From contig JBDRKX010000047.1 of the NCBI GenBank assembly GCA_043813605.1, positions 53,539 to 117,538 of the forward strand: a stretch of 64,000 nucleotides of DNA. The letters are read 5' to 3'. Within the stretch, counting starts at the first letter, position 1. Each line of letters opens with the position of its first letter. The notes under the pieces were generated by a model. That model saw nothing but the letters and a program-made list of their open reading frames with translations. It was not told the origin of the DNA and made no database searches. The DNA is from Elusimicrobiota bacterium (lineage in GTDB: Bacteria; CG03; SLGR01; JBDRKX01). Below are positions 15,301-61,630 of the stretch, piece after piece. The translations under genes were made by a program, and so were the position numbers.

Positions 15301-18300
15301 TATTTGGGCAGTTTCTCAATAACGGCAACGGTGTTCCGCAGCCTTTTCAGGGCTTCTTCTTCTGTTATACTGCCGCTCTTCCATTCCATGACAGCAGTTA
15401 AAATATTTAATCCGATATTTGTAGGAGATGTCCTATGGTCTATTTTACTTCTGGCTTTCATAATCACATTGATTTTATTTTCCGCCCAGTTTCTTGTCAC
15501 AGGCAGCTTTGTAATAAAACTCAGTATCCGGATTTTAAGTTTATCACTGCCGGATAAGTTTAAGATAACATTATCCGGCGTCAGGAAATCGACGCAGGTC
15601 TCGTTAAGAGACCCTGTTTCAGGATCTACTTCACTTATGCCGGTCTTCGGATCGATCTCGGCAGGCAGTTTTTTAATATCTTCAAAAGTTGCATTGGCAA
15701 AAAGGTTATGATACCTGAAAGCCTCATTTAGTATTTCCTGATATGATCTGCGGCCGGCACGGCTCAACTCCGGTATTTTTCTCCCGGCTTTCTCAGGCAA
15801 AGACGGGATCGCAGTAACTGAGGCAGGTTCTTTTTCAGAAATTATGACTGTTTCAGGTATCTTAAATTCCTTCCCATCTCTTGTCCTGAATTTGGCCTGA
15901 TTTATTATTCTAACAGCGCTCTCCGGGCCGCCGCCGATTGTTATCGGCGCATCATCTTCATCACCTACGGATATTGCTCCCTCCAGGTTCAATATACGCC
16001 CGTCATTTCCAAACCCGTTTAAATATTTATCTGCTATGATTAAAATATTCTTATCACGGAGATCAGACAGATTATTTCTTTTCTCAACTGCTGCTTTAAA
16101 AACTTTAAAAGCTTCCAGTTTATCTGAAGTACAAATGTCCAGATTCTGATCTTGTGAAATATATATTTTTAAATCGTTTATCCCTTCAAGCTCTAACTCA
16201 TAACTCATTACATCTAAAGTCAATTTGTTGACGATACTTCTAAACTCCGTTAGAGTTAAGCCGGTTCCCCGTTCTAAATATTCTTTAATTTTGATGTTAC
16301 CTTTCAGGCTGAAAGGAACTTTGGTTTTATCTATGATTTGCTGTATTCTATTAACCTCATCTATACTAACTGTATCAATAAAGCCTCCAATCAAACTTAT
16401 ATTATATTTATTCCCTTCTTCTTCTTCTGCAGTTAACTCATACTTCGTTATTAAATTATTTATATACTTGACATCATTTTCTTTAAATTTTATATTTTCA
16501 ACGTGACCGTTATTTTCCAGTCTTGAACCATTAGAAGTGAAAATATAAAGATTCGCCCTGTCTCCCGTAATATACGGCAGTATATTTTTCCTGAGTGATT
16601 TTATTCCCCTGCCTGAGGCCAGCGCCACAGGTATTCCCATATTGAGAAGAATAGAGATTACATCTGCTATTTCTTTTGAAATCCCGGGAGTTAAAGTCAA
16701 AGTCCCATCTACATCGAAAAAAGCTCCGTGTTTGACCGCTTTTAAGGAATCCTCAAGCAGATTTACAGCGGGTTTTTCTTTTGCCGGTTTGACGAGTTTC
16801 ACGCCGAATTCTCTTTCTATATCTTCAAGCGTTATCCTGGCAGCTGCGCAGTTCGCTTCGCCTGCCCCGTAAGTTATGTGGAATATATTGTCATTTTTAT
16901 TAAAAACGGCTGTCGGATAAACCTGTTTCAGATCCAATTTCAGTAAACCCTTGAACCGTTTATATTTGGAATACCCGTAGATGCCTATAGCTTCAGCTAT
17001 TTCAGTATCTTTTGAGGGATATAGCAGCGGTTTTGGCTGGCCTACAAGCTTCAGGTTTTCATCAAAACCGGCCACCTCAGTAATATATACCCGATCGATT
17101 TCTCCGGCTTCCTTTTCATAAAACGCACGGTGAAGAAACATAAGATATTTTATTTTCCTTCCCTCAACAGGTATGAGCGGCGAGCCGCTTCCTACCCATT
17201 GGCCGTCAGGCGCATATATAACCGTATCTTTATCAAGGTTGAAACTATCCCAGAATTCAGCTCTTATTTTTTCATCAGTGATCAGATCTATCAGTTTTTC
17301 CGCGGAACCGATCTTTGTTATCTGTATGTCAGGTTTTATTCTGTGAATAAGTATAATGTTCCCGTCTTCCATCTGCTGGACTACGGCATTTTTGTGGTAA
17401 TAATCATTAAATCTGCTGCTCCCTATCGGCCCCTGATACTCAAATGTCTTCAGATCTCTGCTGAGAGCTACTGCCGGCCCTAATAGCTCATCCCATCCTG
17501 TTTCGGCATTACGTTCCACTTCGACATAAGTTACACACCACCATTTTTCACCTTTTATGGTTATTTGCGTTAGTCTCGGATTTTCAAAACTCCTGATCCT
17601 GCCACCTACAATTTCATCGTCAGCGGATATAAGCACCCTTAATGACTTTTTATCTACCTCGTATTCAGAAGTATCGCTGTTATAGGTGACATCGCCTATC
17701 CCTATAACGGAAGAAGTATCCTCATACCACGCTCTGAACACGATTTTATCATCTTCTATGTGCGGGTTTATTACACCCAGTATTTTACCTCTGGCGCTAA
17801 ATTCTGGGATGTCTTTTATATCATCTAATCCAAGTATTATCTCTTCACCGGGTTCTTTACCGTACCGTTCAGTATGGAATTTCTCTTCCATCTTCTTCAG
17901 GGTATCCTTATCCGTTACCCCGTAACGGCCATTGATAAATGCTCTTGCAATTGTCCTTATTTTTTGTAATAACCTGCTTATTGCCGGTTTCGGATAAAAT
18001 GTGATCCTCTCCTCAGGCATGATTATACGCTTCACGACTTGAGGCTTTTCGGCTTCAGCCCGCTTAATATCAATGGTTTCGATCACACTTTCAAGATGCA
18101 GTGAATGTTTACTGTTTAAATCGACAAGATAATCCCTTACATTATCTATATTATCCGCGACGACTATTCCTTTCTGCAATATGGTATAAAGAAATTCTGC
18201 TGATAAACTGTGCTCGTTTAATTCATGTTCGACCGCAGACAACAGTTTTACAGCATTTATGATATTTTGCTCAGGATAATCTTTGAATATTCCATCGATC

Positions 18301-36300: not shown

Positions 36301-39300
36301 CAGTTACTTTTTTCCAGGCCCATAAATACTTCCACGTCTTTTACACTTTTCAGTATGTTCTCGTAATAAAAATACTCAGTAAACCACAATCTGACCGCAT
36401 AACCTCTTATCCCCGCCTCGCTGATAAGATATATGTCAGCCTGCTGTTCCTCCCAGAAACTTTCTTCCATCATGCCCAATAAACCCATACCGGCCATCTT
36501 CTCCGATATCTCCCAGTAACTCATACCAACATGGTGTCCCTTTTCATGGATCAATAAATCCCTGATTATCTCTTCAGCAAATTCCGGCGACATCTCTGAA
36601 ATTGCAGCTACCTTTTCAACGAACTCATCCCCTATCGTCAGAGTAAAGTCTTTACTTATCGTTAAAGGATACTTTATCTTCTCTAGTTCCATGCTCTGGA
36701 AACCAATATCATTTGCAGTCTTTTTGACTTTTTTCAAGGTTTCAAGATAGACATCGCTTTTTCTTGAAAGATCCAACTCTTTTGATACCCGTATCTCTTT
36801 GAATTCGATAAGTTCCCTGATATTGAAAGCTTTATTGAATGCTGAAGCCATAATAACACCTTGTTCAGCCTCCTGCCCGTTAAAATTATTTTCTATTGAT
36901 ACCCTGTCAAGATAATCAGTATCTATGGCATCATACGAGCCGAAAACAAAATAGACATTTTTAAGACGGTTCCTGTTGGCCTCTTTCAGTACCCACTTGA
37001 TCTCGTTTGTGGTAACGCTCTCATGTGTATCGATATTCTCGTCCGCTACGAAGAATACTACCGGTTCACCTGTTCTTGTAAGTTCATCTACAAAATCCTC
37101 CGAAACATGAGACGATAGTTTCAGATCATGCTCGGCTCTCATAAAATCCTTTAATCCGAATATGGTCGACAGTGCCCAGTATATTCCGTGTTTTTCTCTC
37201 ATTCCCAGTGCATATCCGAAAGTACTGCTCGGCGACAGTTCTTCAGTTTTTTCACTGGTCCTTGAACTTTCATAGATATCCCTGTCCACTTCTCCGGTTA
37301 CACGCATACCTTCTATTTCACCGCGCGATACTGCAGTGAAAAAGTCTGCTATGGTATATACTCCTGCAGAACTTTTTTTCAGTTTAGATAGGCTTATGTA
37401 ACGAGAAACCCCGGCTTTTTTCATTTCTTTCTCAAGGTTAGTCTCTTTTATTGAATCAGCTATAAGGTGGGAATCTGGTTTATCATATTCAATTTCAGGA
37501 GTGGGTTCAGCTGCGGCTTCCGGCTCTGCAGGCAGAGGGGTAGAAGCCAGCCCTTTTATTACCGCCGGTAGTTCGGGAAATTTTACTCTTTCGGCATATT
37601 TCGGGTCTTTCTGATCGGCGATCCTGTAGCGCCAGTTGTACCTGACGAGCTCGGCGCCTGTGAGATTGGGGTTATTTATCCGGTAATGGTCCCCCACTTC
37701 TTCGCCCACGGTAAGATATATCATTGATGTCTTCATGCCGAAAAGCTTTTTGAGCCAGGCAGTGTAATTCTCGATATTCCAGCCGTTATACATGTGTTCG
37801 TCGCCTATTCTCGGTGAATCATGCGAAGTAAGACTCGCCATCACACGCCCGCCGGCCTCCGGCCACCATTTCACTTCCGCCATCTGATGCAGGCCCAGTT
37901 CTTTTATCTTGTTTCCGACCTCGAAAGGCGCGCCGAGCTGTTCCACTATGGGCAGCTTGTCCCTCACAGAATATATCTTCTTTATCTCTTTCAGCAGCCG
38001 GTCCCCGGCAAGATATTCATCGCCGCTCATCAGTTCCTCTTTTCCAACCCATCCGTAAGCCATGTGACCAGCGTCTATCCTGCCGCCATCAAAACCCAGT
38101 ACATCCAGCTTGAACTCGTGCTGTTTCAGTATGAGGTCGAAAGGCCGTTCCGAGGATGCGAGCCCGGTATAACTGTATTGCGCAAGCGAACCCCATGAGT
38201 GCGGAGCACCAAAAGCTATGACGCCTGGACTCTTATCAAGACTCTGGAAATATCCGCTATTATCTCTTGCGCTCGCCCAGACTTCTGCACTGTCCTTCCC
38301 CATGAAATACGGGGCATCATAGAAAACCCGGCCGCCCGCATGATGTATATCCCTGACGGCTTCGTCCCATTGTCCGAAGGCGACGTACTGCATAAATCTG
38401 TAGAATCCAATCATATCCGAGTAAACGGAATACACACTCTCAAAATTCTTACCGAACTTACTGCTCATTTCGGATATGAGATTCCCGAGTTCCGCCTCGA
38501 GTTCGAGTGTATCACCATGCCCCGAAGATATCATATTTTCTATACGGTACCGGGTGAGGACCGCGTTTACTATCTCACTGTTCCAAGTCCACCACGAATC
38601 TTTGAAAGTATTCGTAAAGGCCATAAAACTGGCGTAATCATCGAGCCACCAGGAGTGTTCCTGTGCAAAATCATCGATTTTTCTCCTGAGCTTCATATGC
38701 GCGGGCTTTTCGCTCTGGTTCAATATTGAATACAGTTTTCTGGCATATACTGTTTCCGCCAGTTCCAGTTTTTCGTAATCAACAAAATCATTATTGTATT
38801 CAGGGAGGGAACTGAAATCATTTTCAAAATTATCAGAAGCCACCTTGTTCCAGTTGATGAAGAGTTCATTCAGCGCGTAACTGCTTGCAGCGCTGTACGG
38901 GCTGTGCGCCGCGTCCCGTGTGGGATTGACAGGCAGAAGCTGCAGTGTGTTGATGCCGATTTTTTCCCTGTATTCCCTGAAGGTATCTGCAAGGTCGGTG
39001 AATTTACCTATCCCGAAATCTCTCCCCGCTTTCTGTCTGAGAGAGAAAACAGGCACTTGGAGAGCGAATATCCTCCTTATTTTAGAAACAGGAGGATCGA
39101 CATAGAGCCTGATGTTTCCCGCAGGGCCGGCCACATAGGTCCACGTAACCCCCTTATCAACCGAGAACCGCACCGTATATTCGTAATCGCCGGCGAGCCT
39201 GGGCTTGAGTATCCCCTTGAACCTGTATCCCTCACCATCCGAGCGGTCGTACCTCATGTTTATCGCGCGCCATCTCTTCTTCGCGGGAGCATTCTCCCTG

Positions 39301-42300
39301 TCGAGGTTTGTCCATATCTCCGCCCTGATATCCGCAGGATCTATATCACCGCTGACAACAACAGCAGCGTAAACATTCATCTTTTTTAGGGCATTGGTAT
39401 ATATTTTGCTACCGAGGTCTGGCTCAGCCCAGCCGGCGTTCACTATCTCAGCAGGCGGCGCGCGCGCCGGCGGTAAAACCTTGAACGGGTCTGAAGATTC
39501 AACTCCCATCTCCGATGCGAGCTTCCTTACTTCGGCATAAGCCCTGAGTATCTCGCTCACTCCCCACGCCTGTGCGTCGCACCCGCGCGGAGTATGCGGC
39601 GCATCACCGTCCATTATCTCGGATATGCTGCCAACGCCCGCTTCCCTCAGCTGCTTCTTAACAGGTTCAAGGTACCCCAGCGCTCTGCTCACAGCCTGCG
39701 CGGAATTATTGTTCGCTTTCAGGTAGGCCAGGATAAACTGGCCGTAGGGCCAGGTCCACGCGGTACCGTTATGATAAGCGGGTTTACGCTGTGTATCCTC
39801 ATCTCCCTCGTACCGTCCGCTGTAGGGATCGAACGGGTCTTTGAGGTGCGCTATCCCGCGCAGCGGCACATTGATCTTTTCGTCGGCGAGGCTCCTGAGG
39901 GCGCCGGGTATCACAAGTTTTGAAGCAACGGTATCCATCACCTTCCTGGCCTTGCCGGCACTAAGCATACCGTAGAGCACCGCCGTTACCTGGTTGGAGC
40001 GTATTGAACCATCCGGTATCCCGTCGTAGGCGCCCTGACCGGGCCTCGCGAGGATGCAGTCATTGAGGTAGCCTCTCCTGTTCCAGAAAAGCTCGTTGAA
40101 ACTCTTTTCTATCTTACCTGCCAGAGATGGATCGGCGATACCGAGGGAGGACAGGTATTCCACAGCATTATGCCAGAGAGCCTGTATCTCCACGGGATAC
40201 CCTTCCCTGGGCGTTCCTGCTGGAAAGTTCGTGTCCATCCATGTGAAGTGCGACGGTGAGAATACAAGGCCGGATTCGGTATCCATAACGATTCCGTTCG
40301 GAGTTCCTATCCTGTAATTCGTGTATATTGATTTCAATATGTCCCTGAGCGTCCTGCCCTCGACTACCTCCAAATCCACTATACTCTTGTCCCCCGTAGT
40401 CTCTATATACTGCTTTACTGCCTCTATGAACCACAGCGGCGCATCAGAAGTGTCCCTGTCGGAGGCGTCTTTACCCCTGATTATATTCGGGAGCGTCCCC
40501 TTGTCTTCGAATATGGCGAACTGGATGAGTATATCCCTGACCTCTTCAGTCCTGCCGGCGCTCAGCATCCCGAGCGCGACTATCAATGTGTCGCGGCCCC
40601 AGTCGAGGAACCACGGGTAACCGGCTATTACTGTCTTGTGACTATCCCTGTCAACAATGAACTTATCTAACGAAAGCGCCATTATCCGGGCGAAAGGATC
40701 TTCCTGTAACCTTTCAGGCAATTTTTTTATTACCTTCTTCTGTTCTTCCAGCTCTTTGTTGAACAAGCCCTCTATATTCTCATCTTCGTATAAATATTCC
40801 CTGCCTTTCGGTTCCTCAGTAGAAGCAACCCAGCTTACAGTTTCCCCTTCAGTCAGAATCATTTCAAAATATCCGGGACTCAAAGCATCAGACTTTGTTT
40901 CCATTCCCCTAACTCCTTCTATCGAGTGTTCAATATTATAATGCCACTGAGGATCCTTATGATATTTCCCGCGACCGGAGATAATAGTTATCCCTTTGAA
41001 TGGATACCAGTCACCCGTATTAAACCACAACCCATCCAATCCTTTTTTTAATAAATCCCCCTCTATCCTGCCTGTCTTATCAAACCACAGTCCGTCTTTT
41101 CCTTTGGTTACATTATGAAAATCTCTCCATTCCAAATGATGCCGGACATTTAATTTAACACTGCCTTCACATTTCAGTAAATGGTACCGCGCAATTACTG
41201 TGTTCTCTCCCTTTACAAGCTGAAGAGTTTTTTCGATAAGAATTCCTTCTACTTCATACTTCCATGTCGGAAGCGGATATGCTTCAAAACTAACCATGTT
41301 TTCAGCATCAAGCGGATAAGACACCCCATTGATAACAACATTTTCATAAGACCCTTTCACCAGAACCTTTCTGTCCTCTGGAACATCTGGATTTATATTG
41401 GCTGCTAAAAGAGCATCATACTTGGAATAGTATTTACCGGGTTGTATAGCCGTTCTTAGCATTGCACCTTTTCCATTTGCAAGTGTTATTGTTCTTTCCG
41501 CTCCGAACTCTCCTTTTGATAATACAAGGTCTTTTTCACTTATTTTCTGTTTATCAATTCTTATTGCGTCTTCAGCAAACTCGAATAGTTTTTGCTGAAT
41601 AGGATTATCTTTTACGGCTTCGTGGTAGGCTTCGTAGGAAGGATATGTTTTGCTTACTACTACTTCTTTATACTCCCCGATCTCATGTTCAACAAGACTC
41701 TTGAGGAGTTCATCTGTTTCCGGCGGGCTCCTTCCGGCGAGGCCTTCTAAGAATTTTGCATGGACAAGAAGTGTCACCTCTTTTGTAACCTCGTTCACTT
41801 CCAGTGTTGCAAGCGACCAGACGTCTTCTGTTATCAGATCAGGGTTAGCGCTTACTTCTACGGATGGTGTATACCCTGCCATGATATGGTTTAACATGTT
41901 TTCAAGCTTTTCAGTATATTCTGTTTCATCATAAGGCAGTTCTTTTCGTTTTATTATCTTCTGCCGGTAGATGTCTATTAACGCTTTAGAGACATCTACT
42001 GCTGATCTAACGGGGAGTGTAACAGGAGTCAAAAGCAGTTCCACCTCCTTACCCAGAGAAATGATCTTTTTTTCTTCCGCAACACCAACGAGCTCTTTTT
42101 GCAATTCACGCGCTTCTTCGGCTTTTTCCAAATCACTGATCCATTGTTCTATGTCTTTCAGTTCATCTTCGACAAATGTTATTTTCACAGGTTTCCTATA
42201 TCTGCCGAAAAGCGTGTCCGGCTGTTGATCCGCTTTTTCATAATCGACAATACCCTGACTGTCTAAAAGGAATTTCTTCAGGCCCGATCTGTACTCCAGA

Positions 42301-45300: not shown

Positions 45301-48300
45301 AATGAGAGAGGCCGTCTGACAGCCCGCTTTATCATTGCGAGATCCGTGCTTGGTACTGACTGACAAAGGAGTATTTCTACACGGTCAGTCCGGTTCATGT
45401 CTTTCAGTTCGGGAACGTATTTTAGCCACGCTTTGTAAGGACCACTGTGGTTTTCGAGTTTCGTGAGTATTCTGTCATAGCGCTTCATCTGTTTAATAGT
45501 TGCTCTGGTATCTAGTGAATAGCGGTTGTTCTTCGCTTCGGCCGCAAAAACCTTTCCATCTTTAACGAGCATCATATCCATCTCTCCGGCCATGATATTC
45601 TTAACATATTCCAGGCTGAATGCTCTCAGTTCGTATCCTTTCTCTTCAAGGTATGCCGCGGTCTGAAGTTCCCCGGTCAGACCGGAAATGTGTGTATAGT
45701 ATGCTTCTGTAAACCGGAATCTTCTTGAATGGCCAAGGCCGAGCAGTACATTCTCAAGACCCGGTACTTCACGGAAATGGTATAACATCGCTACTATTGC
45801 ATCAATATCTTTTGCATTTTCGTCCGCCATTATGTTTTTTAGATGATGCGAAACGATAGGCAGCCTGTTTTCAAAACGGAATGGCGGCGCCCTTTCGGAA
45901 GTTACACTGTAAAAATCACGGTTATTTATTATGCCGTTTATTATAGCTCTAAATGCTGTTTTATACTGCTCCGGTATAGCATCAAAGTCCTGCTCTACGC
46001 TTTTCCAGTATTCATATTTAGCAGGTATTTCACTGAAAGAAGAGCCCCTGAGTTCATTTATTATCCTGGAAAATCTTTTCTCGAAAGGCACAACAGTCGA
46101 CATGCTTCCAGTGACTCTTACATCTACATAGTAGCGGAGAGCGTCTTTCAGCGGATTCTCTTTTCCGAAGATCAGCCTCTGTATGCCTTCATAAACCGAT
46201 CTGTGAGTCTTGTAATCATGTTCACCGAACAATGCAGAATACCCTTCATGAAAAAGTATTTCGTCGAAATATTCCCTGAATTCCGTAAATTCGGCATCAA
46301 AAAAATCCTGTGCCAATACGATCCTGTCACCGGCAACATAAGCCAGTAGATAGTCTTCACGGTTGTTGATAAGGGATTGAACTTTTTCTATTTTTCCGTT
46401 TTCAAAATACTCAAGAAGTGTCTTATGGACGGGTATTGCTTTATATAACAGGTTTTCCAGGTTTCCTTTGCGCTTTTGGGGCAGTTTTGACAGTGTGTTT
46501 TTTATTATAAAGTTATTGGGATCGGTCAGTTCATTGAAAAACCCGAGCATATCTTCGTCCAGGTCACTGCGGGCAAAATATTCTGTTAATAATTCCAACG
46601 TATAATCCGTAAACTTTTTATGCTTCTTTTCAGCTGCTTCAAGTTCCACAAAAACAAGTTCCTGAAGTTGTTTACCCAATTCGGCTATTTTGTCTTCTAT
46701 TAAGACTTTATCCTGCGTTTCCAGCCGGTTTGTCCGCTGGTATTCTGCCATTTTAAGGGCTTTTCCCTTGCCTATCGCTCCCCGGAGTCCTGTAACAGCC
46801 TCTATCGCAGGTAAAGTCACCAGATTCCTGTATGACACCTCTTCTGCAGGCACCTCCCGCAGTTCTTGAGTAACACTCTTCCTGATATTGTCAAAAACCC
46901 TGAGTTGAGCCATAAACACCAACATAAGATCCGAACCCTGAAGAAATTCCGCAATTTCAAACTGCTTTTTCTGGACATTCATACCGTGCATCAGATGCAG
47001 TTTCGCTACTTCTTCCGCATGTTTCTGAGGATAACCGTATCGCGTAAAATTGTCTATTTCTCTTCTTGTAACTGCCCAGTCTTTATAGTGCATCTGACCG
47101 AGAAACTGTATCTGTTCTTTGCTAAGATTGAATTTTTTATTTAATTCCATATCCATTCCGGCTTCAAGCAGTTCGTGAATGAGTATTTCCGGCATAGCGG
47201 GATTCTCGGAATCGAACCTCATCTCTATAGCCGGTCTCTTTTGCCACAGATATATGTTCTCTTCAGCCCATGTCTTTTTTCCTTTTTCAAGGCCGTCTTT
47301 AAACTCAATACTTATGTCAAAAGCGCTGATGATCTCCTTAAGTTCGTCAAACCTGTATGCCCTGTCTATAGCATCTTTCAGCTGGGGCAGCATTGCCCGA
47401 TCCATTCTGCGGATATGAAGATCTATTCCTCTGTATCCAATTTTTCTTTTATATAGATTCTTTACCAGTGATATACCGGCCGCCAGCGGAGCTATAGCCG
47501 AAAGGACCCAGGTGACAAAATATGCCGGCAACTCATCCAGCCCGGCAAACAGGCCGCCAAGCATATATTCTCTCATGCCTGACGGTTTTAATCCGGCTTT
47601 TTCCGCCATTACCGTAGGCTGAAACCGGCTCACATGTACTCTCTCGTGGAGGAGACTGGCCATAATATGTATCCCGGATAACACACTGGTCAACACTGAT
47701 CCTGCAGCAATGATATGCCCTACATTCAAATATAGCGTACCGTCTATTATGCCTGCAACGGCATAGTTTCCGCTTAAAGATACAAATTCTTCTGTAGACA
47801 TCAAACGGTAATCATCCTTAAAAAACCTCTTGATCAGTTTAAGCAGGGACGGATCCAGCAAAGCCTCAAGTTCGACAGTTGTATCTCCGGATTTAAAATA
47901 TCCTTTTTCAAAAAGTTTGACCATATCCCCTGTTTCGGGTTCAACTGCGTATATTCTTTCAATCATATTTTTCAGGTATTCTGTACTGCCATATTTTCCG
48001 GCACGCACTGTAGCTATAAGGAACAATCCGAAAAACGAAGCAAGAGAGACGATGGATACGAGAGGCATTCCGAAAAGGAGCATATCAGCACCCAGAAGGA
48101 GAGACCATGAAAGCGCCGCACTCATGAATGCAATGGGAGTATATACTACCTGGCCCGCGATTATACCATGTCTGTTAAGAACTATGTCCCATAACTTATC
48201 TACTTTTTTAAAATCCCCAACAGACATGTTCTTAAAATGATGGCCATATATCAAGTCACTGTCCTCGTGTTCCAGTATAAGCCGGAACGCTTCGCGGTTA

Positions 48301-51300
48301 CTCCGTGAATATACATAATCAAGAAGGTTTGTGTGCACATATATCGAGTCCGTACCTGAATGACCAAGTACTCTTCCTTCTGCAAACTCATCACCGCTTG
48401 AGAGAAGAAGGACCAGCCTACGGCTGCTAAGTGTCTCTGATTCCGATTCTACTGACAGTTCTAGAAAAAGTTTCAGTTTTTCTTTGAGTTTATCAGGGCC
48501 TTTACGCAGGATATATAACTCCAGCTCTCTTTCAGCAAGTCTGCGGGCATCTTCATCCTTAAAATAGAACGACTCCGTAAGATTTGCGGCTGTTTTCGCA
48601 TAATCATCGCTGAACATATGATCGATATCTGACGACAGGATACCGGGTATAAGCGCAATCGCCCTGCCAGAAGTTATTGCGTCCAGTACTGCCCCGTCAA
48701 CATCTTCCTGTATTACGCCTTTTTTCATAAGGTTCTTTTCTGTACCCTGTGCCAACTGTCTCTGCTTGAAGAGTTCCACCCGATTCAAAGCCTTTCTGAT
48801 ACTGCTCCCCGCGCCGACGCCTATTTTCCTCTCTTTTCTCATAGACTCTTTCAGTCCTTTTAAACGGCTCGTAAGTATCTTGCGTATATCTCTGAGTTCC
48901 GGATGTGTTATCAATTCTTTATCAGCCAGTACCGATTCGATCTTTTGTACAAGTATTTCCGCTTTCCTGTCCCTATAAGTGATCTTATCAAGGAACCCTG
49001 TCGTTGCTTCGCCCGGACGCATATTCCTTGTCACACTCAGGAACCGGTTTATTACTTCCCCGTCCGGAGTATGTCCTGACCATAACCATTCTCCCCTAAG
49101 ATCAGTCACATCCAGGTAAGGCATGAATTTGCCCAGATAACGCTGATACATCTGGAAAGCTTTCATAAAGTCCTTTGTCCCTGTTTCCATAATACCGTCA
49201 TACCCCACAACATAGAATTCTCCTTTGATCTGGAGTAAAAGAGCCGGATGAAGCGTGTTCTCTGACCCGAGTTCGGTGTCCGCTGACCTGCGGACTTTTA
49301 TGATATATCCCTCGACATCAGGTATGACATCTACTATATCCGCAATAAAATCGAGCATATGGTAATACAGGGCCATATACCTGGGATTCAGTGAAGTAAT
49401 ATCGTCTATAGCCCACTGTATATACCTTTCCAGATTTTCTTTTCTGTACTGTCCCAGATTCTCATACCATAAGTTAAACTCTTCCTCTGATCTCAATTGG
49501 GCTATTTCATCAAGTATTTTCTGTATCTCCTGGTCGGCATAATGTGCGCCCTTTGGTAAAAGAGCAAGAAATTCACGGGTAAATATCCTGTCTTTGAAAA
49601 GGTTATAAATATCCTTATATACGCCTTCGTGTTTCTTATAATGGTCTATTAGCTTCATTGCAAAATTAACATACGGCGCTATATCTTCGCCATGTGCATC
49701 AAGGAATATTGCCTTCCAGTCATCTGAGAGTATCTCATCAATAATATCATTGAGCTGCAGATAAGCCTCAAGGAGCCGGCGCTGTTCATCGCTAAGACTT
49801 TCGAGCCAGCCCTGGAAATCGAAGGACATATCCGCTCCCAGCGTTCCGGATATCTGTTCTATGATATCCGGAACCAGAGCCAGTATATCTGATATATCCG
49901 CATCTGGTAGAACTCCACTTGCTTCGTCAGCCATATCCTGCATTCCGTTCTGAAGATATACAGCAAGCCACATTGCCTGACTACCGGTCATGTTATCTTT
50001 TACAAAACTTATAAGTTCTTCCTTTGAACTGATGTCAAGCGCCCCTATATCCGTATCCGCCTTTATACTGTCAAATACGCTGCCCATATGACCGGCAAAT
50101 CCGGATATAACTCTATCATGATCAAACTTAAACCCTTTAAATTTGTTTAATAAATAGTCAACAAGCCATTTGGCATGTTCTTCACCAAGTTCTTTTGCCC
50201 AGTCTTTAAATTCATCCAATGATAACCTGTTGATCTTGTCTTCTATATCGTTTATAAATCTTTCCCGGTCAGCAGGGCTCAGCCATACTTCTTCAGGTTC
50301 TTCTTTGGCATAACTCATCCTCGGCCTTTCTACACGAGTCGCGACTTCCCGCATCGGTTTTTTTGCGGGAAATGAAAACCTTATCTGAAAACCTATCCTG
50401 TGCTCCCTGTCCGCGTCCGCAGCCTGTGGATATACTTTTTCGATACTGCTTCCAAAAAGCGTCGTTTCAATATTAGTAGACATATATCTGGCAAGTCCTC
50501 TTATTCCTCCGAGGACTTCAGTCTCGTCGGCAAACATCGGGTGCTCGCTGTCACGCAGCCTGTATTCAGCAAGAAGACCCAGTTTATCAAATCCGGGTAT
50601 AAAAGAGTCCCCCATAATACCGCCCTCAAGCCTGAGCTCGTCATATACGGGAGTATCTTCATATTCTATCTTTGTCGAAAGATCATAAGCATAAGCCTTA
50701 CCTTCGTAACCGAACCCTAATGTCCTGCTCTCCGGGAAGAGTTCAGTATCCTCCAGAGGATCAAAATCTATAAGTTCCAGGACATTACTGATAAACAGTC
50801 TTTCAGTTTCAACTGCCCAGAGTTTGAGAGTATCATCAGTAGTAGGCCTGTATACAAACATAATACCCTTTTCAAGATTGGCATATCCCGAGTGAAATCC
50901 TAAAAGTTGTGTATCTCCTGAATGGTAAGCGAAACTGTTTACAGCCGCTCCTACTGCCAGCGAAAAATTTCTCCAGTCTAGCGGAATACCGGTTTTTAAA
51001 GAGCCGCTCAACACATTAAGCTCTTCCTGTTCAAACGGACTTTTCAGATTAAGGTCTATATGAGAAGCTCCCAGATCAAAATCAAAATTTAAATAATGAA
51101 ATATACTGCCGTCAAAACTGACTTCCACCATACCGTACGGACTTTCCAGTATATCGCTTTCTCCCTCAGGCCCGGCAAGACCGCCTATTCTGAAAATAAT
51201 ATCGCCTTCCTCAAGATAAAATACATTTCTACCTAAAATATTAAGATTGCGCACACTTAAAGTAGGATCGAGATAAGCGTTCATCCCGTAAGGGCCAAGA

Positions 51301-54300
51301 TAGAATTCCGAACCTATATCGAATTCCGGGAAAGGGATATCCAGTCTGGCATCTATGTTAAAACCACCGGAAGCGAATGGAGAACCAACAGGCCATAATA
51401 CCATTGCCGTTATTATTATTATGCTCAGGAACCTCCTCACAGCCGGCATTATCTTTTTTGTAAATATCCATTTCAGTACCCGAAGGTTTTCAGGTATTTG
51501 TTTGGCTTCCCGGGCAAGCACCTTTTTCCAGAATCTGCTGACTATCCTGAAATCCTCAGGGCTCAGGTTTTCTATATGCCTGCCGTAGATTATGTCGTTA
51601 TCTTCATGTTCCGATATCAACCGGAGAGCGGTAATATCATCTTCTGTTTGGACAGCTATCAGAGCATTGAAATGATAATGGATCGAATTTGTGGTTTTAC
51701 CGCCATGGCCAAGGACTTTTCCTTTTGCGAAATGGCCTTTGGGATTCAAATGAACAACGAGCGTACGCTGTTGGAGCGTTTCCTGTGAAGTCTTTCTGTC
51801 TTCTCCTCTTAAAAGTCTGACCTTGTTCTTAAGTTTACTGGCAAGTACTGTGTAGAAGGGTTTCCTTACGGTTCCTATAAGGACCTTGAGCCGGTCCCTC
51901 AATATATTTATGTCCGAAGTCTCCATCCTTGCCAAGTGCCGTTTGAGTTCCTGCATGGACCTGATCCTGGCCCTGTCGTCCTGATCAAATCCTTTTGTCA
52001 GGTTATACGCCAGCATCTTTGGATCAGCAAACCATCTATCTATATCTTTCGCCTTTATGCCCGCAGGAATAGCTACTGCCCAGCCGTACTTAACATTGTT
52101 CCGTATATGTTTTTCGAGCCATTTAAGTTTTACTCCCTTTTTCATAAGGTTCTTGCCGGTACCGCCTTCCTCAGCTTTCTCGAGCTTTATCTTCTCTATT
52201 TCAGCGGCATCTCTTTTTACTGTTATCCTCTCATTTGCCCATCGAAGAGCTTCTGCCCAGAATCTCTGAGATTTACTGCCATTATAGAGCCCTATATGCC
52301 CGGCGTTAATTATTCTTCGGTAAAGGTTTTCCGGTGGTGTGCTCACTTTTTCCGCCATAGCAAGACTCTGTCCCTGCCGGTTCTGCATAAATTCAAATAT
52401 TCCCCTGAGCTGATCTTTGCCTGATGTTTTAATAAACGGATCATCCGATGAAAGAAACTCATCAAATGCAATAGTGAACATCCTGTCTTCAACGACAGCT
52501 ATCTTGCCGGGCTCCCTGTTAACATTGCCTTCACCGTCATCAGAGATGAGTTTATTGCGTTTTAGAAAATCCCATGTAGTATCTGCTATCTCTGCCTTAT
52601 TTACTGTCGCAGGCGGTGTTACATCGTCTTTTGTGCCTTCGAACATAATGACCGGACATTTTATCCTGGAAAGGTCTACCAGTTTCATCTCATGACCTAT
52701 TTGTATCTCCATCTCGCCTTTATAGAGCTGGTTACCCTTGAATATCTTGTCAATACATTCCAGGTACCAGAGTGACAGGTTGTTAGTTGTATAGAACCAT
52801 TTGATAAAATGTTCCGCCCGGGCAACATATTTCTCGTCATCGATATTATCTACCAGGTTCTGCCAGAAATCGATCTTCTTTGATTTACCTCCGTCAGGAC
52901 CCATGTTAAGGAATCCTTCAAGCTGGCTCTCGCCATCATAGATATTCTCACGGCCGAACCCGTGTACCAGCCAGTTAAAAAAATCTTCCGGAGCTTCTTT
53001 TGATACCCTCGTTATATCGTTATCTCCGAGTGTAGCGTGAAGCGGAGTGCCGGCAATATACAAGGCTTCGACTTTTTCCGGATATAATGCGGCTACTATT
53101 GCCGCTACCCAGCCTCCCTGACAGAGACCCGTTAACTGAACTTTACCGCCAACAGCGTCTATTGACTCGACTACATTGTGTACCATGTCGGTAATCAGCT
53201 GGATATCGTCCGGAGTCGCGCTCTTCCAGTCTATAGAATATGTAGGCTGGCCTTCGTTCTGGAATGTCTGAACAATACTCTTACCGTCAGCATCATCTGC
53301 TATTGTAGAGCGATGACCGGAATTCGGCGGTACTATCAGCATCGGGATCCGGCTCATATCTACACTGTGGTCTTCTGATACGGTGAAATCCCTCAGCATG
53401 AAACTGGATTTATCTATTATTACTTCGTTATCCGTAAACCATTCGGGCTCCTTAAATTCCACCCTATTAAGAAACTCAAGAGCTTTTTTTACTTTACGGA
53501 AATAATCGTTATACGGTGCCCAGAACCCTACCCATGGTTCATATACCGACTGGCGCCATAACCTTTGCAGATCTTTCGATTCTTTGGTCCAGGGAATAAA
53601 GTATTCTACAAAAGGAAATCTGGAAAAGAACCTGCCGAGATTCCTGCGGCCGGCTTTATACATATCCTCATTTTCTTTGCGAAGACGGGCAGCTTCAACA
53701 GCTTTTTCTTCATCTGTCAGCTTGATGCCCGCCTCGACTTTGGCCCAGAGCGGTCTAACCAGGGTATCAAACAGGTCTTGCCGGATATCCTTTTCGTGAT
53801 GGCCTCTTATAATATCACCGTCTTCATGTTCGAGTATAAGGGAAAGCGTGGTCTTTTCATATTCCGTTTCAACCGCATCGAGCATGTTTATGTGCAGATA
53901 TATGGATTCCCGGCCGGCGCCGCCGTGGCCGAGTATACGCCCTTCCGAGAAATGGTTTCCTTCAGAAAGCAGAACTACAAGCCTGCGGTTTTTAAGAGTA
54001 TCCTGTTCAGTCTTCTGTCTTGAATGAAGAAGCGTCCGCAACCGGTCTTTCAAATGCTCGATGTCAGAACGCGCCAGGTACTCCGTCAGAGCTTCTTCTG
54101 CCCTCTTACGCGCCCAGTCAAATTCATAGTCCATTGAATCAAGCAGGTTCCGGGCTGTTTTGTTCAAATCGTCCGCAAAGAGCGATTCTATGTCTGTCGC
54201 TGTAAGTCTTGCAGAAAGGCTTATTGCAAGTCCTCTGGTTATACTGTCTTCTATTATCTTATCTGCTTCTTCCGCAGTAACACCGGATTTCATCAGGTTC

Positions 54301-57300
54301 TTGCCGGTACCCAATGCTTTTGAGATCTCTGTCTTTTCTTTTTCTATGACTTCAGGAATTTTGCGAGGAACCTTAACAGGAATTTTACGAGGGATTTCAG
54401 GGGAAACAGCTCCTGCTGCGCGGAGAGCGAGGTTTTTTAGTACATCTTTGAATCCGGATATTATCTCTACAGGTATGTTAATAACACCTGTCGCAACAGA
54501 GTCAGGATTCATCAGTTTTGCGTTACGGATCAAAACCTGATCTTTATGAACAGGGGTATTTGTAAGGAGGTACCCGTTAGTTTTTATTCCTGCCGCATTG
54601 AGAAGAGTCTGTACACTCCTGATACTCTTACCGTCATCAGTCACATAGTCATCCAGGTGCCCCTGTCCGCAGAAGACAGCGATTCTTGCCGAAGGATCCT
54701 TATTGTGAAGTTTCTTTATCTCCCTGGCAAAATACCTGTTACGGCCGTTAGTGATTAACCTTTCTCTTATTCTGGGTATTGCAGCAATAGCATCCGTATC
54801 AAAGAAATGGTTTAATCCGGGTATCATCTTCTCAACTATTTTCCAGAAAAGCATAAGCGGCATATCCATATTTACTATTTTTATACCGGCGGCGCTTGCC
54901 GCTTCATATATCAATCGATAGAATTCAGGGCCGGATTCCCATATTCTCTGCTCACTGAAACCATGTCCCTCAAAGCAGAGGTACTTAACTCCTGATTCAT
55001 TTAAATCCTCCATAATACTCATCAGGTACATCGGGTGAGTCATGTTCTTATGATAGTCGCCGAATATCACTACGCGGGCATCATCTATAAGTTTTTTTAC
55101 ATCAGCGCTCTCTATTTCGGTATTCCTGTAGAAATCCGCCGCTTCAGGATCGGCACCTTTAAAGAGTTTTTCAAAGAGCAATACCCAGTTAACCCTCTCA
55201 CTTGCCTGCACCATATCATAGAATCCCCGGAAACTGCCGGATAAGAGATTCTCTTTCTCTGTTGTTGAAAGACCTGCTAACTTTTGTGTCAGTTTACCGA
55301 AAAAGATCAGTCGGGAAAGCCGAAGCGCTGAATTGGAACTCCTGTAATCATATATTGACCCGCTCCAGATATCCGTTATCTTTTTTATATCTTCTGTTTT
55401 TAACGAAGGCAGCCTGTCTATTATCTCCTGAAGAGAAGGGTCCAGTTCAGCCAGTTCTTTAAGGGAATCATTGATTATCCTGTAATCACCGGCAGGATTT
55501 ATAGCTGTCTCGACCATATCAGAGATGACTTTTACAGGTATTGTCACCGGACCAACCGTATCTATCAGCCTGTCTTTGATAACAGGCAGTATCCTGTCAG
55601 CCGATATCTCTTCTTTTTCAATACCCGGTATCTCTTCTTGTGGAACGATATCAGCTTTAATAGCTTTTACGATGATCATACCAATGCCTGTTGCTGTCCC
55701 GTCAAGCACACTCTTGAAAAAGTCACTATCAATAAACTGATCGAGAGCCGTCACATCACCTCTCTGTCTCTGTTCGATATTTACATTATTCAGGAATCCG
55801 GAATCCCGCGATTTCCTCACGACAAACGGTATAACAGGATTCTTTATGGCACGGAATTCTGCCTTCAGTTTGCCTTCCCCGGCAGATTTCTCAAGTAACG
55901 CGTTCACTACATCCGTTATCCTTCCTTTCTGTTTCCCCGGTATCCCCCTGAACTTAGGATTGATCATGATCCTGTCAATTATAAGCATATCAGGATCATC
56001 AACCAGGTTCACGCCGCCTATATCGATATTTTCCGCATTGTATATCCTGTGATTATAAAGCCCGGCCGCCATAGGGACGAACCTGAGACCGTAAGTCTCG
56101 ACTATAAATCCTTTCTCAGATAATTTAACTATCTTTTCAGGATATAATCCCTCTTCTTTTTTTATAATTTCCTGCAGCTCAAACAACGGAATAGAGTCAA
56201 TATGTTTCTTTTTGAGGTGCTCCTTGAACCCTTCCGGCGTCCCGTCAGGTTCAATACCATAATAATTGTATCTTTCCGTCACATAATCTATCAGCAATTT
56301 TAAAAATAGAGTTTTTCTCGCAAAACCTTCAGGCAGTTCATCTTCCTGGGCTTTCATTATGACTGACTTGTGTATGACAATGACATTTTTATCATCTATT
56401 CTTGCTATTTCTGCCAATCCCAAAGACTCTTCTTCCTTGAAGATCTCAGTCACAAGTTCTTTTTTACTGATCTTTACTTCAAAATCGGTCAGTTCAAAGA
56501 ACATCGACATAAACAGATGCAGCCCTTCAGTACCCAGCTCTCCGGTACTCATGAGATCATCCATATCGTCAAAAAGAGAGCTCGTGGTCTTACCTGCCGT
56601 AACAGGTATAGAAATAGAAGCTACTGCTTCTTCATGATGTTCAAGAAATTTGTCGATAAACAGGGAGATATTGTTTATATCGGTCCTTTTCACTCCAGCA
56701 GATTCTATCGTATTGTAAAAATCTTTAAGGATAACCGGATGCTCTGCCAGCGGCCGGCTCATCAGTTCCGTCATGATATAGATCATATCTTCTTCGACAG
56801 GATATTTCTCGACAAGCTCGATTTGAGCAGTAGTAAACGCTACCAGCTGTTCTAATCCGAGGTTGAGAGCAATAAATTCGACGATTTTTAAGTCATTACG
56901 GTCAATAAGGTTTTTCCTGAAAAGTATGTTAAGTATATCTATGATCCGCTCAAAACCGGGAGCAGTAAAAGTACCCGGCATATCATCCGGATAAGACTCA
57001 TATAAACCTTTTTTTATTATTTCGTGAATGATCTTTAGATCTTTGTCCTGGATATAGTTTTCTCTTGCAAGATTGTTAAGTATAAGAAACGTGCGGTAAT
57101 CTTTTATAAACAATGCGTATATAGAGTTCTTTTTTTGCCTTTCTATGACATAATCCATCATAAGTGTTCCATTACCCTCAAAATCTCTGCCTCTTATCAT
57201 CTCATAGGTCATCTCTGTATCAGAATCAAGGTTTTTAAGGTTCTGCATGATAAATGAGACTTTTTCTTTGAGTTCATTACCCGTATAACCACTGTCAGCG

Positions 57301-60300
57301 GTCATTTTCCTTATATCATCTTCTTTCAATTCCTTAAACTCAATGATCGATTTTTTTATTTCTTCTATACTCAAATCTTTATATAATTTGCTCGGCCTGT
57401 TCTCCCATGTGTTGAACAGGAATTCATTAAAACCCATCTGCGTGTCAAAAGCCACATCATGATCGAATCCGACAGGTACACCGTCAACCATAACCATATT
57501 GCTGTCATGCGGATCCCATTTGCGTATCAGGACATTGAATACAAACATAGCCGCTGCCGCTTTGTCGTAATCATTGTGTACGAATTCTCTGTATCCGGCG
57601 CCAACTGTCCTCGTAAGATAGAATCCTTCTTCACTGCTCCCTATCCCGAATTGTCTCAGATTTTCTGCTTCATCATTACTTATCGTCCTTATCTCCGTCG
57701 TATTTACCCTGCCTTTTCCGATAAGGTAAGCGAGCATCTCTCTCCTGTAGTCGTTCTTGTTCTTGTGATATCCATGGCCGCCGGACTTGAGCTTTTTTAC
57801 TATAAAGTTTTTATTGCCTTCATTTACCTGAAACTCCCAGGTGCCGTCCTCGATCGGATTTTTGCCGCCATAGACATATCTCGGTTCAGGTTTCTCTGCC
57901 GGTACCTCTTCTTTAAACTCTTTATCTATCTTCTTCAGGATTTCTGCCGCCGCCTGACTGATATTCCCGTTTTCTTCATAGAACCCCCGCAGATACTGTC
58001 TAATATAAGCCTGCTCTTCAGGATTTACGCTGTCGTGATACTGGATCATCCTGTCCGTTTCGCCGGACACAAGTATTCCGGCTAATTCCTCTTTATACGG
58101 ATTCGCTATTGTCTCTTTCAAACCCCGGGCATCAGAGAAAAGCAGGGCGATTCTAGGGTCACCTTTTAAAATAAGTTTAGACAGACTGTCGCCTATATCC
58201 TGAGAATAGATCTTTTTATTAAGTTTTATATCTATACTGCCGAGAGTGCTGTTCATGCCGAATATGACTGCCGGGGTACCCATTTCAGCCATCTGAGACG
58301 CGTCCACATGGTCAGAAGCATGAATGATCTCTGTTACCCGCCTGATACCGGGAATTACATATCCCGGTATGCGGTCAGGATGGTGATGGTAGAATACCGC
58401 AAGTTTTATGGAAGCAGGGATCTTTATTCCTTCTGTTTCCAGCTCTTTTTCGATGATAGCTACCGAATCGAGCGCATGGCCCAGAACATCTGTACCGCTT
58501 TCGTATTCCCTGTAATTCTTTCTGGTCTTTGATATATCATGTATCAAGGCAGCTATCTCAAGCGCAGTCTTCTCCTGTCCGGTGATACCCAGTTCTTCTG
58601 ATATTATTGAAGAGTATTCCCTCACACGCTCGATATGGCGATGCCTGTGTTCTATACTCCCGAAAAGCGCGCGGATCTTTTCGGATATTACGGAGACATC
58701 TCCGTTTATGACAAACCGTTCATTTTCAGGTGTATTATTATATTCGGCTATCACTTCGGCGATCCTGGGTATTATATCCGGATTTATTCCGCTCGATGTC
58801 ATCATCCTGGATATCTGCGCGATCTCTTCTTTTATCGGATCAGCTATCTCTGCCGGCTCCACTACTTCAACCGGCGGTTGTTCAACAGTTTCCGGTTCTT
58901 TTTCAGTTTTTTCAGGTAAAATCTGTGGGCGCTGTATTACACGGGCAGGTCTTTGCAGAAACTGTCTGTAAAGAAAATAGCTCATCCCTATACCGCCTAT
59001 CACTCCGGTTGCAACAGCGGAAACTGCCATAGCTGAAGCCGCCAGAGCCCATACAAGTACTGCTGAAACAGCTACTATACCGAGCGCGATCAGGACATTC
59101 CTGTATTTTGCAGTAAATCCCGGTTTTCTTCTTTTCTTTGTAAGATCACGGATATCCGCCGGGCGGGCGGAGACAGGTGTCTCTTCTATTTCACCTTTTT
59201 CTATCTGTACAAGAAGTTTTTTCAACCGTTCTGATTCCGTATATGTTAATCCTTTCTCACCCATACCTATCTCGGCATTATAGCCCTGGAAGAGTCTGAC
59301 AGTCTGGTCGCCCGACTCTATCAGATCACTCAGTATTTCTTCTATCCGCGTGGTTTCAGCAGATATTTCTGAACCTAGAGCAGGAAACATATCAGAATTC
59401 CTCATAATAGCCGTAACCGCATACGGATTGTATATATACAGTCCGTCGGATGTTTCCAGCAGTTTAATATCGTTGCCTGTACTCTCTATCAGGGTTTTTA
59501 ATGCTGTTTTCTCTGAAGCGGTTATCTCCTTCGAAACATCTACCCTGCTGAATGGCCTGGTTTCAGGCGAAATCACCGTTATCATGGCATCTGGATTGAG
59601 GACAATTTGTGTTTCCTGGTCTTTCTGTGCATTTTGCAGTTTGGTGAATGCTTCTCCGGCATCGTGCATTATTTTCTCTTCAAGGAGCCCTTCTGCTACC
59701 CGGACAGGTATTATCTCTACATCATTTTCACCTTTGACACCTACCGTAAACACCTCATTACCCAGGCTCAACGGTAAAATGGTTTTCCCGTTATAATCGA
59801 CAAATTCGTTCAGATGGAAGATGAATTTATCTTTTTCTCCTGCAATCGCCCTGTTTTTAGTGCGCATTTTATTGAACCTGTTCCACCATTTGAACAGAAA
59901 ATCGTCAACCTTATCGGCAAATCCGGCACTCTCATACCCGGATTCCTTCAGTTCCTGTCTTATAAAAGCGCCCAAACCCCTGACAACAACGCGTTTTTTG
60001 AACCATTCCATCGGCTGGAACGAAGAAACTGCAAGTTCTCTCATAAAAGCTTCTTCAAAACTCAGTTGCTCACCACCCCTGAGAAGCGCATAATACCTGC
60101 TCCGGTCCTCTTCGGTATATGCGGTTACCCTCGGTTTGATCACGGTATATGAAATCCCCTCTTTTTTAAGCTGTTCGCTGATACCGTATGAATGAAAACC
60201 ACCGGCTATCATGGCCAGTATCTTATCCTTGTCGTCAGAACTGCTCACAAATTTCTCTACAAAAGTCTCATCCCTTTTGCATGCCGTATCGTAAAAGACC

Positions 60301-61574: not shown

Positions 61575-61591
61575 TTCTGTTTAAAATACAT

Positions 61592-61630
61592 AAAAAAAAC
61601 CCGCACTCTGTTCATCTTAAAACAAAGTGC
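61592..61630 (-). terminator. Rho-independent terminator read on the minus strand: 8-bp GC-rich stem CCCGCACT/AGTGCGGG, 18-nt loop, followed by an 8-T tract
   Basis: + strand aaaaaaaacccgcactctgttcatcttaaaacaaagtgcgggttt. On the + strand only TTT follows the stem, so it is effectively unidirectional. It ends 18 nt before the giant ORF start codon. Confidence 0.7.

Follow-up and report, generated by a model that had tools for sequence, protein, structure and literature searches.

The question raised by this locus, a 64,000-nucleotide stretch of contig JBDRKX010000047.1 from an Elusimicrobiota bacterium (hereafter the window), is whether one polypeptide can carry, as consecutive modules, the enzymes that take apart the branches of an alpha-glucan, and what kind of polypeptide that would be. 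A first-pass annotation made from the letters had proposed a trio of debranching-type domains, a starch-binding-like module and an amylomaltase-like GH77 domain at 37550-41600. In one polypeptide, debranching domains of the GH133 type are indeed followed by an amylomaltase domain of the GH77 type, both with significant Pfam matches and with their catalytic acids present, and the four motifs quoted in that annotation all lie in a single minus-strand frame of the window (Table 1). The proposed interval, which equals residues ~6,661-8,011 of that frame, comes within ~100 nt of the module limits derived here (~37524-41489), but these are limits of domains and not of a gene. Rather than a stand-alone trio of ~1,350 aa, the unit comprises the internal residues ~6,690-8,031 (~1,340 residues) of a giant open reading frame (ORF). 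We consider it likely that the segment 37524-41489 (minus strand) is an "indirect" alpha-glucan debranching cassette within a membrane-anchored giant protein.

The glucosidase part of the cassette begins with the GDE_N domain, which covers model positions 3-218 of 219 of its Pfam family (E-value = 4e-34) and is colinear in alignment with the glycogen-debranching enzymes (GDEs) of the P0001 and P0003 type. It is followed by GDE_C, which matches positions 4-367 of 367 with 254.6 bits against a cut-off of 21 (E-value = 1.8e-75). As judged from its profile match this domain is a GH133 member, for which an (alpha/alpha)6-barrel would be the fold to expect, from homology only. A profile of ten GDE_N+GDE_C sequences (A1) was aligned to human GDE (8zeq) and residues were counted along the alignment, giving the correspondences listed in Table 1. 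In human GDE, D1261 and E1502 are the two catalytic residues (general acid/base pair) and correspond to D1241 and E1492 in the Candida glabrata enzyme, while G1087, R1147 and G1448 are sites where mutation nearly abolishes glucosidase activity (PMC12219210; PMC4837477). All mapped residues are invariant or nearly so among 46 homologues, and the glucosidase domain looks catalytically competent. Most of the 120 best database matches were ~1,450-aa bacterial GH13+GDE_N+GDE_C proteins. It is to these proteins, mostly from Verrucomicrobiota, that the GDE_N+GDE_C unit is most closely related, with identities of 40-44% overall, ~52% in GDE_C and ~33% in GDE_N. A protein scan of genome contigs gave a best identity of 43%.

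Concerning the transferase part, Glyco_hydro_77 matches from aa 7509 onward (E-value = 1.4e-34, 120.2 bits against a cut-off of 25). When 25 members of the subfamily to which it belongs were aligned with 11 canonical GH77 proteins of ~500 aa, all three catalytic positions were aligned and conserved between the two groups. R7834, D7836, E7880, H7920, D7921 and D7755 are invariant in a 17-sequence alignment (A2), while the nucleophile region reads R-I-D-A-G-H here and R-x-D-A-x-H in the subfamily (consensus R-x-D-A-L-H-F-A-Y). Profile A2 in turn matches canonical GH77 proteins with an E-value of 7e-42 and a coverage of 93% (>90%). The AF2 model of the domain (pLDDT 88.3, pTM 0.90) was compared with the PDB by Foldseek, and the top 33 matches were all GH77 amylomaltases (best E-value = 1e-23, ~19% identity), with TM-scores of 0.70-0.76 for the top ones (0.63-0.76 over the 33) vs. 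~0.46 for GH13. On profile and model evidence the domain is a divergent GH77 member belonging to a distinct subfamily. Membership of GH13, which R-x-D-A-x-H superficially recalls, was considered as well and ruled out by the profile and fold evidence.

When the sequence of this module was compared with the PDB, alignment was confined to the SPYS region, i.e., the N-terminal ~150 residues, and to one further short stretch. A word-indexed search with the single sequence returned 4 weak matches only, and a word-indexed profile search returned canonical GH77 proteins only and missed the subfamily. When 1.84 billion cluster representatives were scanned with HMMER without an index, 1,509 matches were obtained, of which the ~45 closest make up the distinct GH77 subfamily, mostly within proteins of 1,000-7,625 aa. 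A GH77-like protein search of metagenome contigs produced 103 pattern matches, 0 of which were confirmed. The domain also bears a private insertion of 48 residues, recognized from the phmmer domain coordinates, in which query positions 326-373 are left unaligned for all relatives.

Between the two catalytic domains lies the module that had been described as starch-binding-like. The AF2 model built on alignment A3 (moderate confidence, pLDDT 67) bears out a beta-sandwich, with a helix, a disordered stretch and seven strands, the sandwich core spanning aa ~7379-7492. The carbohydrate-binding side of the description fared less well: aa 7347-7505 have no Pfam family match at E<=0.01, CBM families included, and the likeness of the sandwich to CBM21, CBM34 and the GlgE N-domain is weak. 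W7437, G7464 and W7480 are the sole invariant residues across the repeats of this module. Related units stand directly after GDE_C in P0162, P0165 and P0175, and occur as 18 tandem copies in P0173 and 6 copies in P0199. From the model, a glucan-binding role is possible, and "starch-binding-like" is a reasonable guess, unproven.

Table 1. Features of the window. Positions are those of the window, residues those of the giant ORF.
Feature	Position	Residues	Strand	Basis or remark
Giant ORF containing the cassette	3-61574	at least 20,524 aa	-	Stop scan and translation; all Pfam domains in frame
GDE_N, N-terminal beta-sandwich of bacterial/archaeal-type GDE	40836-41489	6698-6915	-	Pfam PF12439
GDE_C, GH133 amylo-alpha-1,6-glucosidase catalytic domain	39543-40667	6972-7346	-	Pfam PF06202
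Catalytic D7116 codon (TWMD)	40233-40235	7116	-	Aligns with human GDE D1261
Catalytic E7321 codon (SEIMDGD)	39618-39620	7321	-	Aligns with human GDE E1502
D6997 codon (WGRD)	40590-40592	6997	-	Aligns with human GDE D1102
R7042 codon	40455-40457	7042	-	Aligns with human GDE R1147
G6987		6987		Aligns with human GDE G1087
G7272		7272		Aligns with human GDE G1448
Middle module	39066-39542	7347-7505	-	Helix from GDE_C, disordered linker, 7-strand Ig-like beta-sandwich
Divergent GH77-type 4-alpha-glucanotransferase domain	37524-39095	7496-8019	-	Pfam PF02446
Nucleophile D7836 codon	38073-38075	7836	-	R-x-D region (GGRIDAGH)
Acid/base E7880 codon	37941-37943	7880	-	V-E-Q-L-G here vs. canonical A-E-D-L-G
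Third carboxylate D7921 codon	37818-37820	7921	-	S-H-D-S here vs. canonical T-H-D-N
Private 48-residue insertion, helical subdomain of the GH77-like domain	38424-38567	7672-7719	-	Missing in all relatives
Pro/Glu/Ala-rich linker ending the module, ASTPLPAEPEAAAEPTPEIEYDKPD	37461-37547	~8012-8040	-	Sequence; AF2 pLDDT <50 in the last 12 residues
Motif GYPWFLDWGRD	40590-40622		-	In frame
Motif YHNGTAWTWP	39747-39776		-	In frame
Motif SPYS	38892-38903		-	In frame
Motif GGRIDAGHMAYGW	38049-38087		-	In frame
Compositional island	37605-40694	6963-7992		GC3 0.607 vs. 0.41 in flanks; two-change-point fit
GH94-type domain, cellobiose/beta-1,2-glucan phosphorylase type	10941-13916	15889-16880	-	Pfam
N-terminal head of the giant protein	59901-61553	~10-560	-	21-32% identity to 15 other long proteins
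~200-aa repeat unit, copy 1	53703-54311	2424-2626	-	Match to P0152
~200-aa repeat unit, copy 2	51480-52163	3140-3367	-	Match to P0152
~200-aa repeat unit, copy 3	48171-48746	4279-4470	-	Match to P0152

From what is known of GH77 and GH133 chemistry, we infer two activities that would cooperate on a glycogen-like substrate. The GH77 domain (D7836, E7880, D7921) would take the outer maltooligosyl portion from a short branch, e.g., a phosphorylase-limit stub, and attach it to another chain end. This transfer would leave a single alpha-1,6-linked glucose, which the GH133 domain (D7116, E7321) would then hydrolyse off. The same two-step indirect debranching is carried out by eukaryotic GDE (PMC4837477), and in Archaea separate MalQ and GH133 enzymes have been proposed to debranch likewise (PMC11046441).

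The polypeptide that carries the cassette is itself unusual. A six-frame stop scan revealed a stop-free minus-strand frame running from position 61580 to 3 of the window (20,526 codons), with its first ATG at 61574-61572 and a hydrophobic N-terminus (MKLINSIYIKFTSWMLVLSFVFVYVF). The frame leaves the window at its low end before reaching the C-terminus, so that the lengths given here are lower bounds, and the ORF dominates the whole 64 kb. Pfam searches of the whole frame identified about 15 other enzyme domains or distinct families besides the cassette, including HD, a DUF3141/PHB-depolymerase-type alpha/beta-hydrolase, LOG (Lysine_decarbox), an Rce1-like protease, Bac_transf, YrbL-like and PI3/4-kinase-like pieces, Glucosamine_iso/6PGL, Metallophos, HAD and a weak GH130; over most of the chain a Pfam match is absent. 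GH94 is represented by its supersandwich and catalytic domain, both complete (E-value = 1.6e-70), and a weak Glycoamylase match begins just before it, at aa ~15648. By its Pfam assignment the GH94-type domain is a second glycan-processing enzyme of the giant chain, unrelated to the debranching cassette. Membrane segments were assessed by a crude hydropathy scan only, which gave ~12-15 hydrophobic segments in addition to the hydrophobic N-terminus and placed the cassette inside a ~6,700-residue stretch free of such segments (aa 4,706-11,392). A PDB sequence search for glycogen enzymes in the 1,981 aa upstream and the 1,300 aa downstream of the cassette found only the LOG domain. At E<=0.01, Pfam detected none of SecA-DEAD, C39 and S8 among the 20,526 codons that the window covers. 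By its size (>10,000 aa), its many enzyme domains and its predicted membrane segments, the ORF matches the giant multi-enzyme proteins of the Omnitrophota type.

Two further elements of the giant ORF recur in other proteins. The three ~200-aa units of Table 1 all map to one segment of P0152 (28-37% identity). A domain directly upstream of GDE_N (window ~41541-42095, aa 6495-6680) recurs in P0142 at 41% identity, and P0152 has three copies of it. In addition, a weak ChaN/Tiki-like Pfam match is located in the N-terminal head (aa 406-468).

The association of the two catalytic domains is not confined to this contig. Three segments of the window were mapped onto the 44 closest GH77-like representatives, and in 29 of them, mostly proteins of 1,000-7,600 aa, a GH133 domain adjoins the GH77-like one. 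Their order is nearly uniform: in 28 of the 29 pairs the GH77-like domain precedes GDE_C with a gap of ~50 aa and GDE_N is undetected, and only P0151 has the GDE before the GH77-like domain as in the window, with GDE_N and the beta-sandwich undetected there. The Ca. Aureabacteria protein P0001 (1,956 aa) presents beta-sandwich, GH77-like domain and GDE_N-GDE_C in that order. L071, a 23.7-kb stretch of a contig from an Omnitrophota metagenome-assembled genome (MAG) with one open frame throughout (a 7,907-aa fragment), has the GH77-like domain and then GDE_N/GDE_C. The N-terminal head of the giant ORF is carried by 15 long representatives (3,235-7,625 aa) with the GH77-like/GH133 pair, some of which also have the LOG region; since the head is common to these 15, the long GH77-like/GH133 proteins form one family. 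Its named members come from MAGs, and where source names are given they are Omnitrophota, Endomicrobiia or unclassified bacterium. Specifically, the nearest GH77-like relatives P0125, P0127 and P0128, together with L071, come from Omnitrophota MAGs, and P0131 from Endomicrobiia. Concerning identity, the GDE_C of the window is ~52% identical to free-standing bacterial GDEs vs. 26-34% to GDE_C domains embedded in giants. Two arrangements among the relatives were noted separately. In P0131 (3,501 aa; aa 2171-3466) a phosphorylase/GT1-like piece stands directly before the GH77-like domain and GDE_C, which may represent a fuller glycogen-catabolic cassette, and aa 86-178 of P0125 contain an alpha-glucan-water-dikinase-type Ig domain.

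The cassette also stands out by composition. A two-change-point likelihood fit of GC content at third codon positions (GC3) delimited the island of Table 1 with a delta log-likelihood of 52.9, and overall GC rises from ~0.42 to 0.49-0.60 over 37500-40750. It is the only GC3 outlier of the giant ORF, in which the best window of equal length elsewhere reaches 0.47 (mean 0.42, sd 0.028). GDE_C, the middle module and the GH77-like domain fall within the island, while GDE_N lies outside with a native low GC3 of 0.32-0.36. Inside it, a GC dip to 0.42-0.46 at 38350-38950 coincides with the 48-aa insertion. The homologous module of L071, in a gene of the same overall GC, served as control and showed no GC3 bump, which ruled out an intrinsic codon bias of these domains as the cause; amino-acid composition was likewise ruled out, as the signal sits at third codon positions. 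The alignment to P0001 is colinear across the upstream boundary and the reading frame is intact at either end, which argues against an assembly chimera. As the best reading, the part from GDE_C through GH77 would have been replaced or acquired in frame, and recently, with a donor of higher GC as its source, and a replacement fits the greater closeness of GDE_C to free-standing than to giant-embedded GDEs.

Comparison with known systems helps to separate what is familiar in this arrangement from what is new. The first-pass annotation had regarded these enzymes as normally separate, which holds in part: fusions of a transferase with a glucosidase are known from eukaryotic GDE, from bacterial GH13-GH133 proteins and from GH77+GH133 proteins, and GlgX/MalQ fusions are known too. 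The architecture of eukaryotic GDE/AGL (GH13_25 + GH133; 5D06, 8ZEQ) is defined by the fusion of a 4-alpha-glucanotransferase with a GH133 glucosidase (PMC4837477, PMC12219210). The cassette is expected to share its two-step indirect debranching logic, but its transferase is of GH77 and not of GH13 type, its order is reversed (glucosidase, then transferase), and it has a bacterial GDE_N, is devoid of the M1/M2 domains and is embedded in a protein of >20,000 aa. The eukaryote-type GDE model TIGR01531 gives it 47.1 bits against a cut-off of 1,399.55. By this predicted logic the cassette would work like a eukaryotic GDE, and it is not a member of the eukaryotic GDE family. The ~1,450-aa bacterial GH13+GDE_N+GDE_C proteins (Verrucomicrobiota, Spirochaetota, Desulfobacterota and others), known from database annotations only, likewise combine a clan GH-H transferase-type domain with GH133; unlike the cassette, they are stand-alone proteins of normal size with their GlgE-like GH13 domain at the N-terminus. 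With canonical amylomaltase/D-enzyme (MalQ; Thermus 1CWY, Aquifex 1TZ7, Arabidopsis DPE1), a stand-alone enzyme of ~500 aa, the GH77-like domain shares the fold, the SPYS region and the catalytic Asp/Glu/Asp, but it reads R-I-D-A-G-H instead of R-I-D-H-F-R-G, bears the 48-aa insertion and is only ~19% identical.

The long Omnitrophota/Endomicrobiia proteins (e.g., P0128, P0131, P0136, P0148, P0151, L071) and P0001 combine an R-x-D-A-x-H GH77 domain having the invariant triad with GH133, many of them behind the giant N-terminal head; the window differs from them by its order of GDE_N-GDE_C, beta-sandwich and GH77-like domain, and by the location of its copy in a GC3 island. As in the giants of Omnitrophota, both those of the Archaeovorin type (West-Roberts et al., 2023) and those classed in 2026 as multi-enzyme metabolic clusters, the ORF exceeds 20,000 aa and tiles unrelated enzyme domains, with a hydrophobic N-terminus, scattered transmembrane (TM) segments and sugar/glycogen-metabolism content. 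A divergent SecA-DEAD domain has been reported in most full-length Omnitrophota giants, whereas neither SecA-DEAD nor C39 nor S8 was found in the part of the ORF within the window. Multi-enzyme giants with sugar and glycogen modules have been described (10.1101/2023.11.21.568195; 10.64898/2026.06.07.730766), and the sugar module of the "multi-enzyme metabolic cluster" includes starch synthase and phosphoglucomutase (10.64898/2026.06.07.730766); the main text of neither preprint mentions GDE or GH77 domains. Curated NCBIfam models exist for GlgX/MalQ and TreY/MalQ fusions, and GH77-like/GH133 fusions are already present in public databases under automatic names. Fusion as such is therefore not new, with multi-enzyme giants, transferase-glucosidase fusions and fusions of GH77 with glucan enzymes all on record. 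What is new is that GH77 takes the place of GH13 in a cassette that recurs among giant proteins, that the window copy has the order reversed and includes GDE_N and a beta-sandwich, and that it bears the GC3 island.

Several observations weigh against the interpretation as a debranching cassette and its proposed origin. The GDE_N+GDE_C unit scores 202.1 bits with gde_arch (NCBIfam TIGR01561) against a cut-off of 364.15, as a relative and not an equivalog, and the MalQ equivalog cut-offs are missed by the GH77-like domain (NF011081, 115 bits vs. 556; TIGR00217, 65 vs. 205.65). The His that directly follows the nucleophile Asp in canonical GH77 (R-[IL]-D-H) is not present, and the altered nucleophile motif together with the 48-aa insertion could confer a specificity differing from that of classical amylomaltase. 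Glycogen phosphorylase, glycogen synthase and branching enzyme were undetected within the 20,526 codons, which thus hold no complete pathway. Our literature search found neither a description nor any enzymology of a GH77+GH133 fusion or of this GH77 subfamily. The edge of the island falls in the middle of the GDE_N/GDE_C unit, which a simple transfer of the whole cassette fails to explain. Finally, intracellular glycogen as the substrate is an assumption, as hydropathy cannot settle the side of the membrane; a topology drawn from hydropathy and the positive-inside rule was dropped because its outcome was contradictory.

That last point leads to an alternative in which the chemistry is unchanged but takes place outside the cytoplasm. 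Exposed on the cell surface or passed into a host or prey cell, the cassette would trim foreign alpha-glucans (prey glycogen, or glucans of the capsule or envelope) as a contribution to the role in attachment and cell-wall degradation that has been proposed for Omnitrophota giants. External exposure is favored by the giant-protein literature, in which 39% of long proteins have a signal peptide along with TM helices (10.64898/2026.06.07.730766), and would suit the signal-anchor-like hydrophobic start of the ORF, its multiple hydrophobic segments and a beta-sandwich, placed between the catalytic domains, of the kind that decorates secreted amylases. Both preprints, however, call topology predictions unreliable or unvalidated, and the neighboring domains favor the cytoplasmic face: LOG, sugar-phosphate isomerase/6PGL, HAD, HD and kinase-like domains lie in or near the TM-free stretch and normally use cytoplasmic substrates, the GH94/GH130-type phosphorylases of the ORF need phosphate, and the GH133 and GH77 enzymes characterized so far work on intracellular glycogen or maltodextrin. 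We regard an extracytoplasmic cassette as unlikely. The same degree of doubt applies to a polyprotein, i.e., a giant chain cleaved after translation so that the glucosidase and transferase act as separate or cassette-sized enzymes. A disordered Pro/Glu/Ala-rich linker bounds the module downstream, no domains were detected over ~2,000 aa on its upstream side and ~1,200 aa on its downstream side, an Rce1-like CAAX protease domain lies within the ORF, and cleavage by C39/S8 peptidase domains was raised by West-Roberts et al. (10.1101/2023.11.21.568195). Neither a C39/S8 domain in the 20,526 codons nor cleavage sites or protease-recognition repeats were identified, though, and GDE_C, the middle module and the GH77-like domain succeed one another without long linkers. 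Moreover, the adjacency of GH77-like and GH133 domains (gap ~50 aa) in 28 other proteins argues that at least the pair works as one chain.

Much less probable than either is that the domains are inactive relics, serving as a glucan-binding or structural scaffold of the giant protein. Both score below NCBIfam trusted cut-offs, the GH77 motif is altered and the domain carries an insertion, and much of the giant protein is without recognizable function; yet all catalytic carboxylates and several substrate-contacting residues are kept here and do not vary within the subfamily, as would be expected if selection maintained catalysis. Least credible of all is an artefact, with the fusion or the GC-rich block produced by a chimeric metagenome assembly or by sequencing error. 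GC3 changes abruptly, rising from ~0.34 to ~0.61 at aa 6963 and falling back at aa 7992, and no independent copy was found in the genome and metagenome collections searched (exact 40-mer search, metagenome contigs, no match). A stop-free frame of 61.5 kb at 43% GC is nevertheless impossible by chance, every Pfam domain lies in that one frame, the alignment to independent GDEs is colinear across the upstream island edge with the frame kept at both junctions, and the same domains are fused in very long ORFs of independent assemblies from other samples.

The indirect debranching cassette thus remains the reading that we prefer, and it has consequences beyond this contig. To our knowledge, only the GH13-based eukaryotic enzyme has been characterized so far for coupled indirect debranching. 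A GH77 transferase coupled to GH133 would be a second, independent solution to the same problem, and the divergent motif and insertion mark a candidate new GH77 subfamily, possibly with another chain-length specificity. With its intact active sites the cassette offers a small, assayable handle for asking whether the domains of Omnitrophota-type giants are catalytic, while the GC3 island is a concrete and checkable example of how giant genes may acquire or replace modules. More speculatively, and with belief leaning against rather than for it, the GH77-like and GH133 pair may be a so far undescribed, convergent prokaryotic counterpart of eukaryotic GDE built on a new GH77 subfamily, serving as a conserved core cassette of membrane-tethered "pathway-in-one-chain" giants. 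In the window, the segment from GDE_C through GH77 would then have arrived by an in-frame exchange with a donor of higher GC. If true, the swap catches giant genes evolving by exchange of modular cassettes.

Apart from the giant gene, the window contains an upstream ORF on the minus strand (62284-63999, 572 aa) with its N-terminus outside the window and no Pfam match at E<=0.01, and a tRNA scan of the window detected no tRNA genes. The ATG of the giant gene has no obvious Shine-Dalgarno sequence in front of it. Upstream of that gene, at ~61602-62163 on the minus strand, lies a small hydrophobic ORF of ~186 aa, and a GC-rich hairpin with a T-run (~61596-61640) is located at its end, ~20 nt before the giant ATG.

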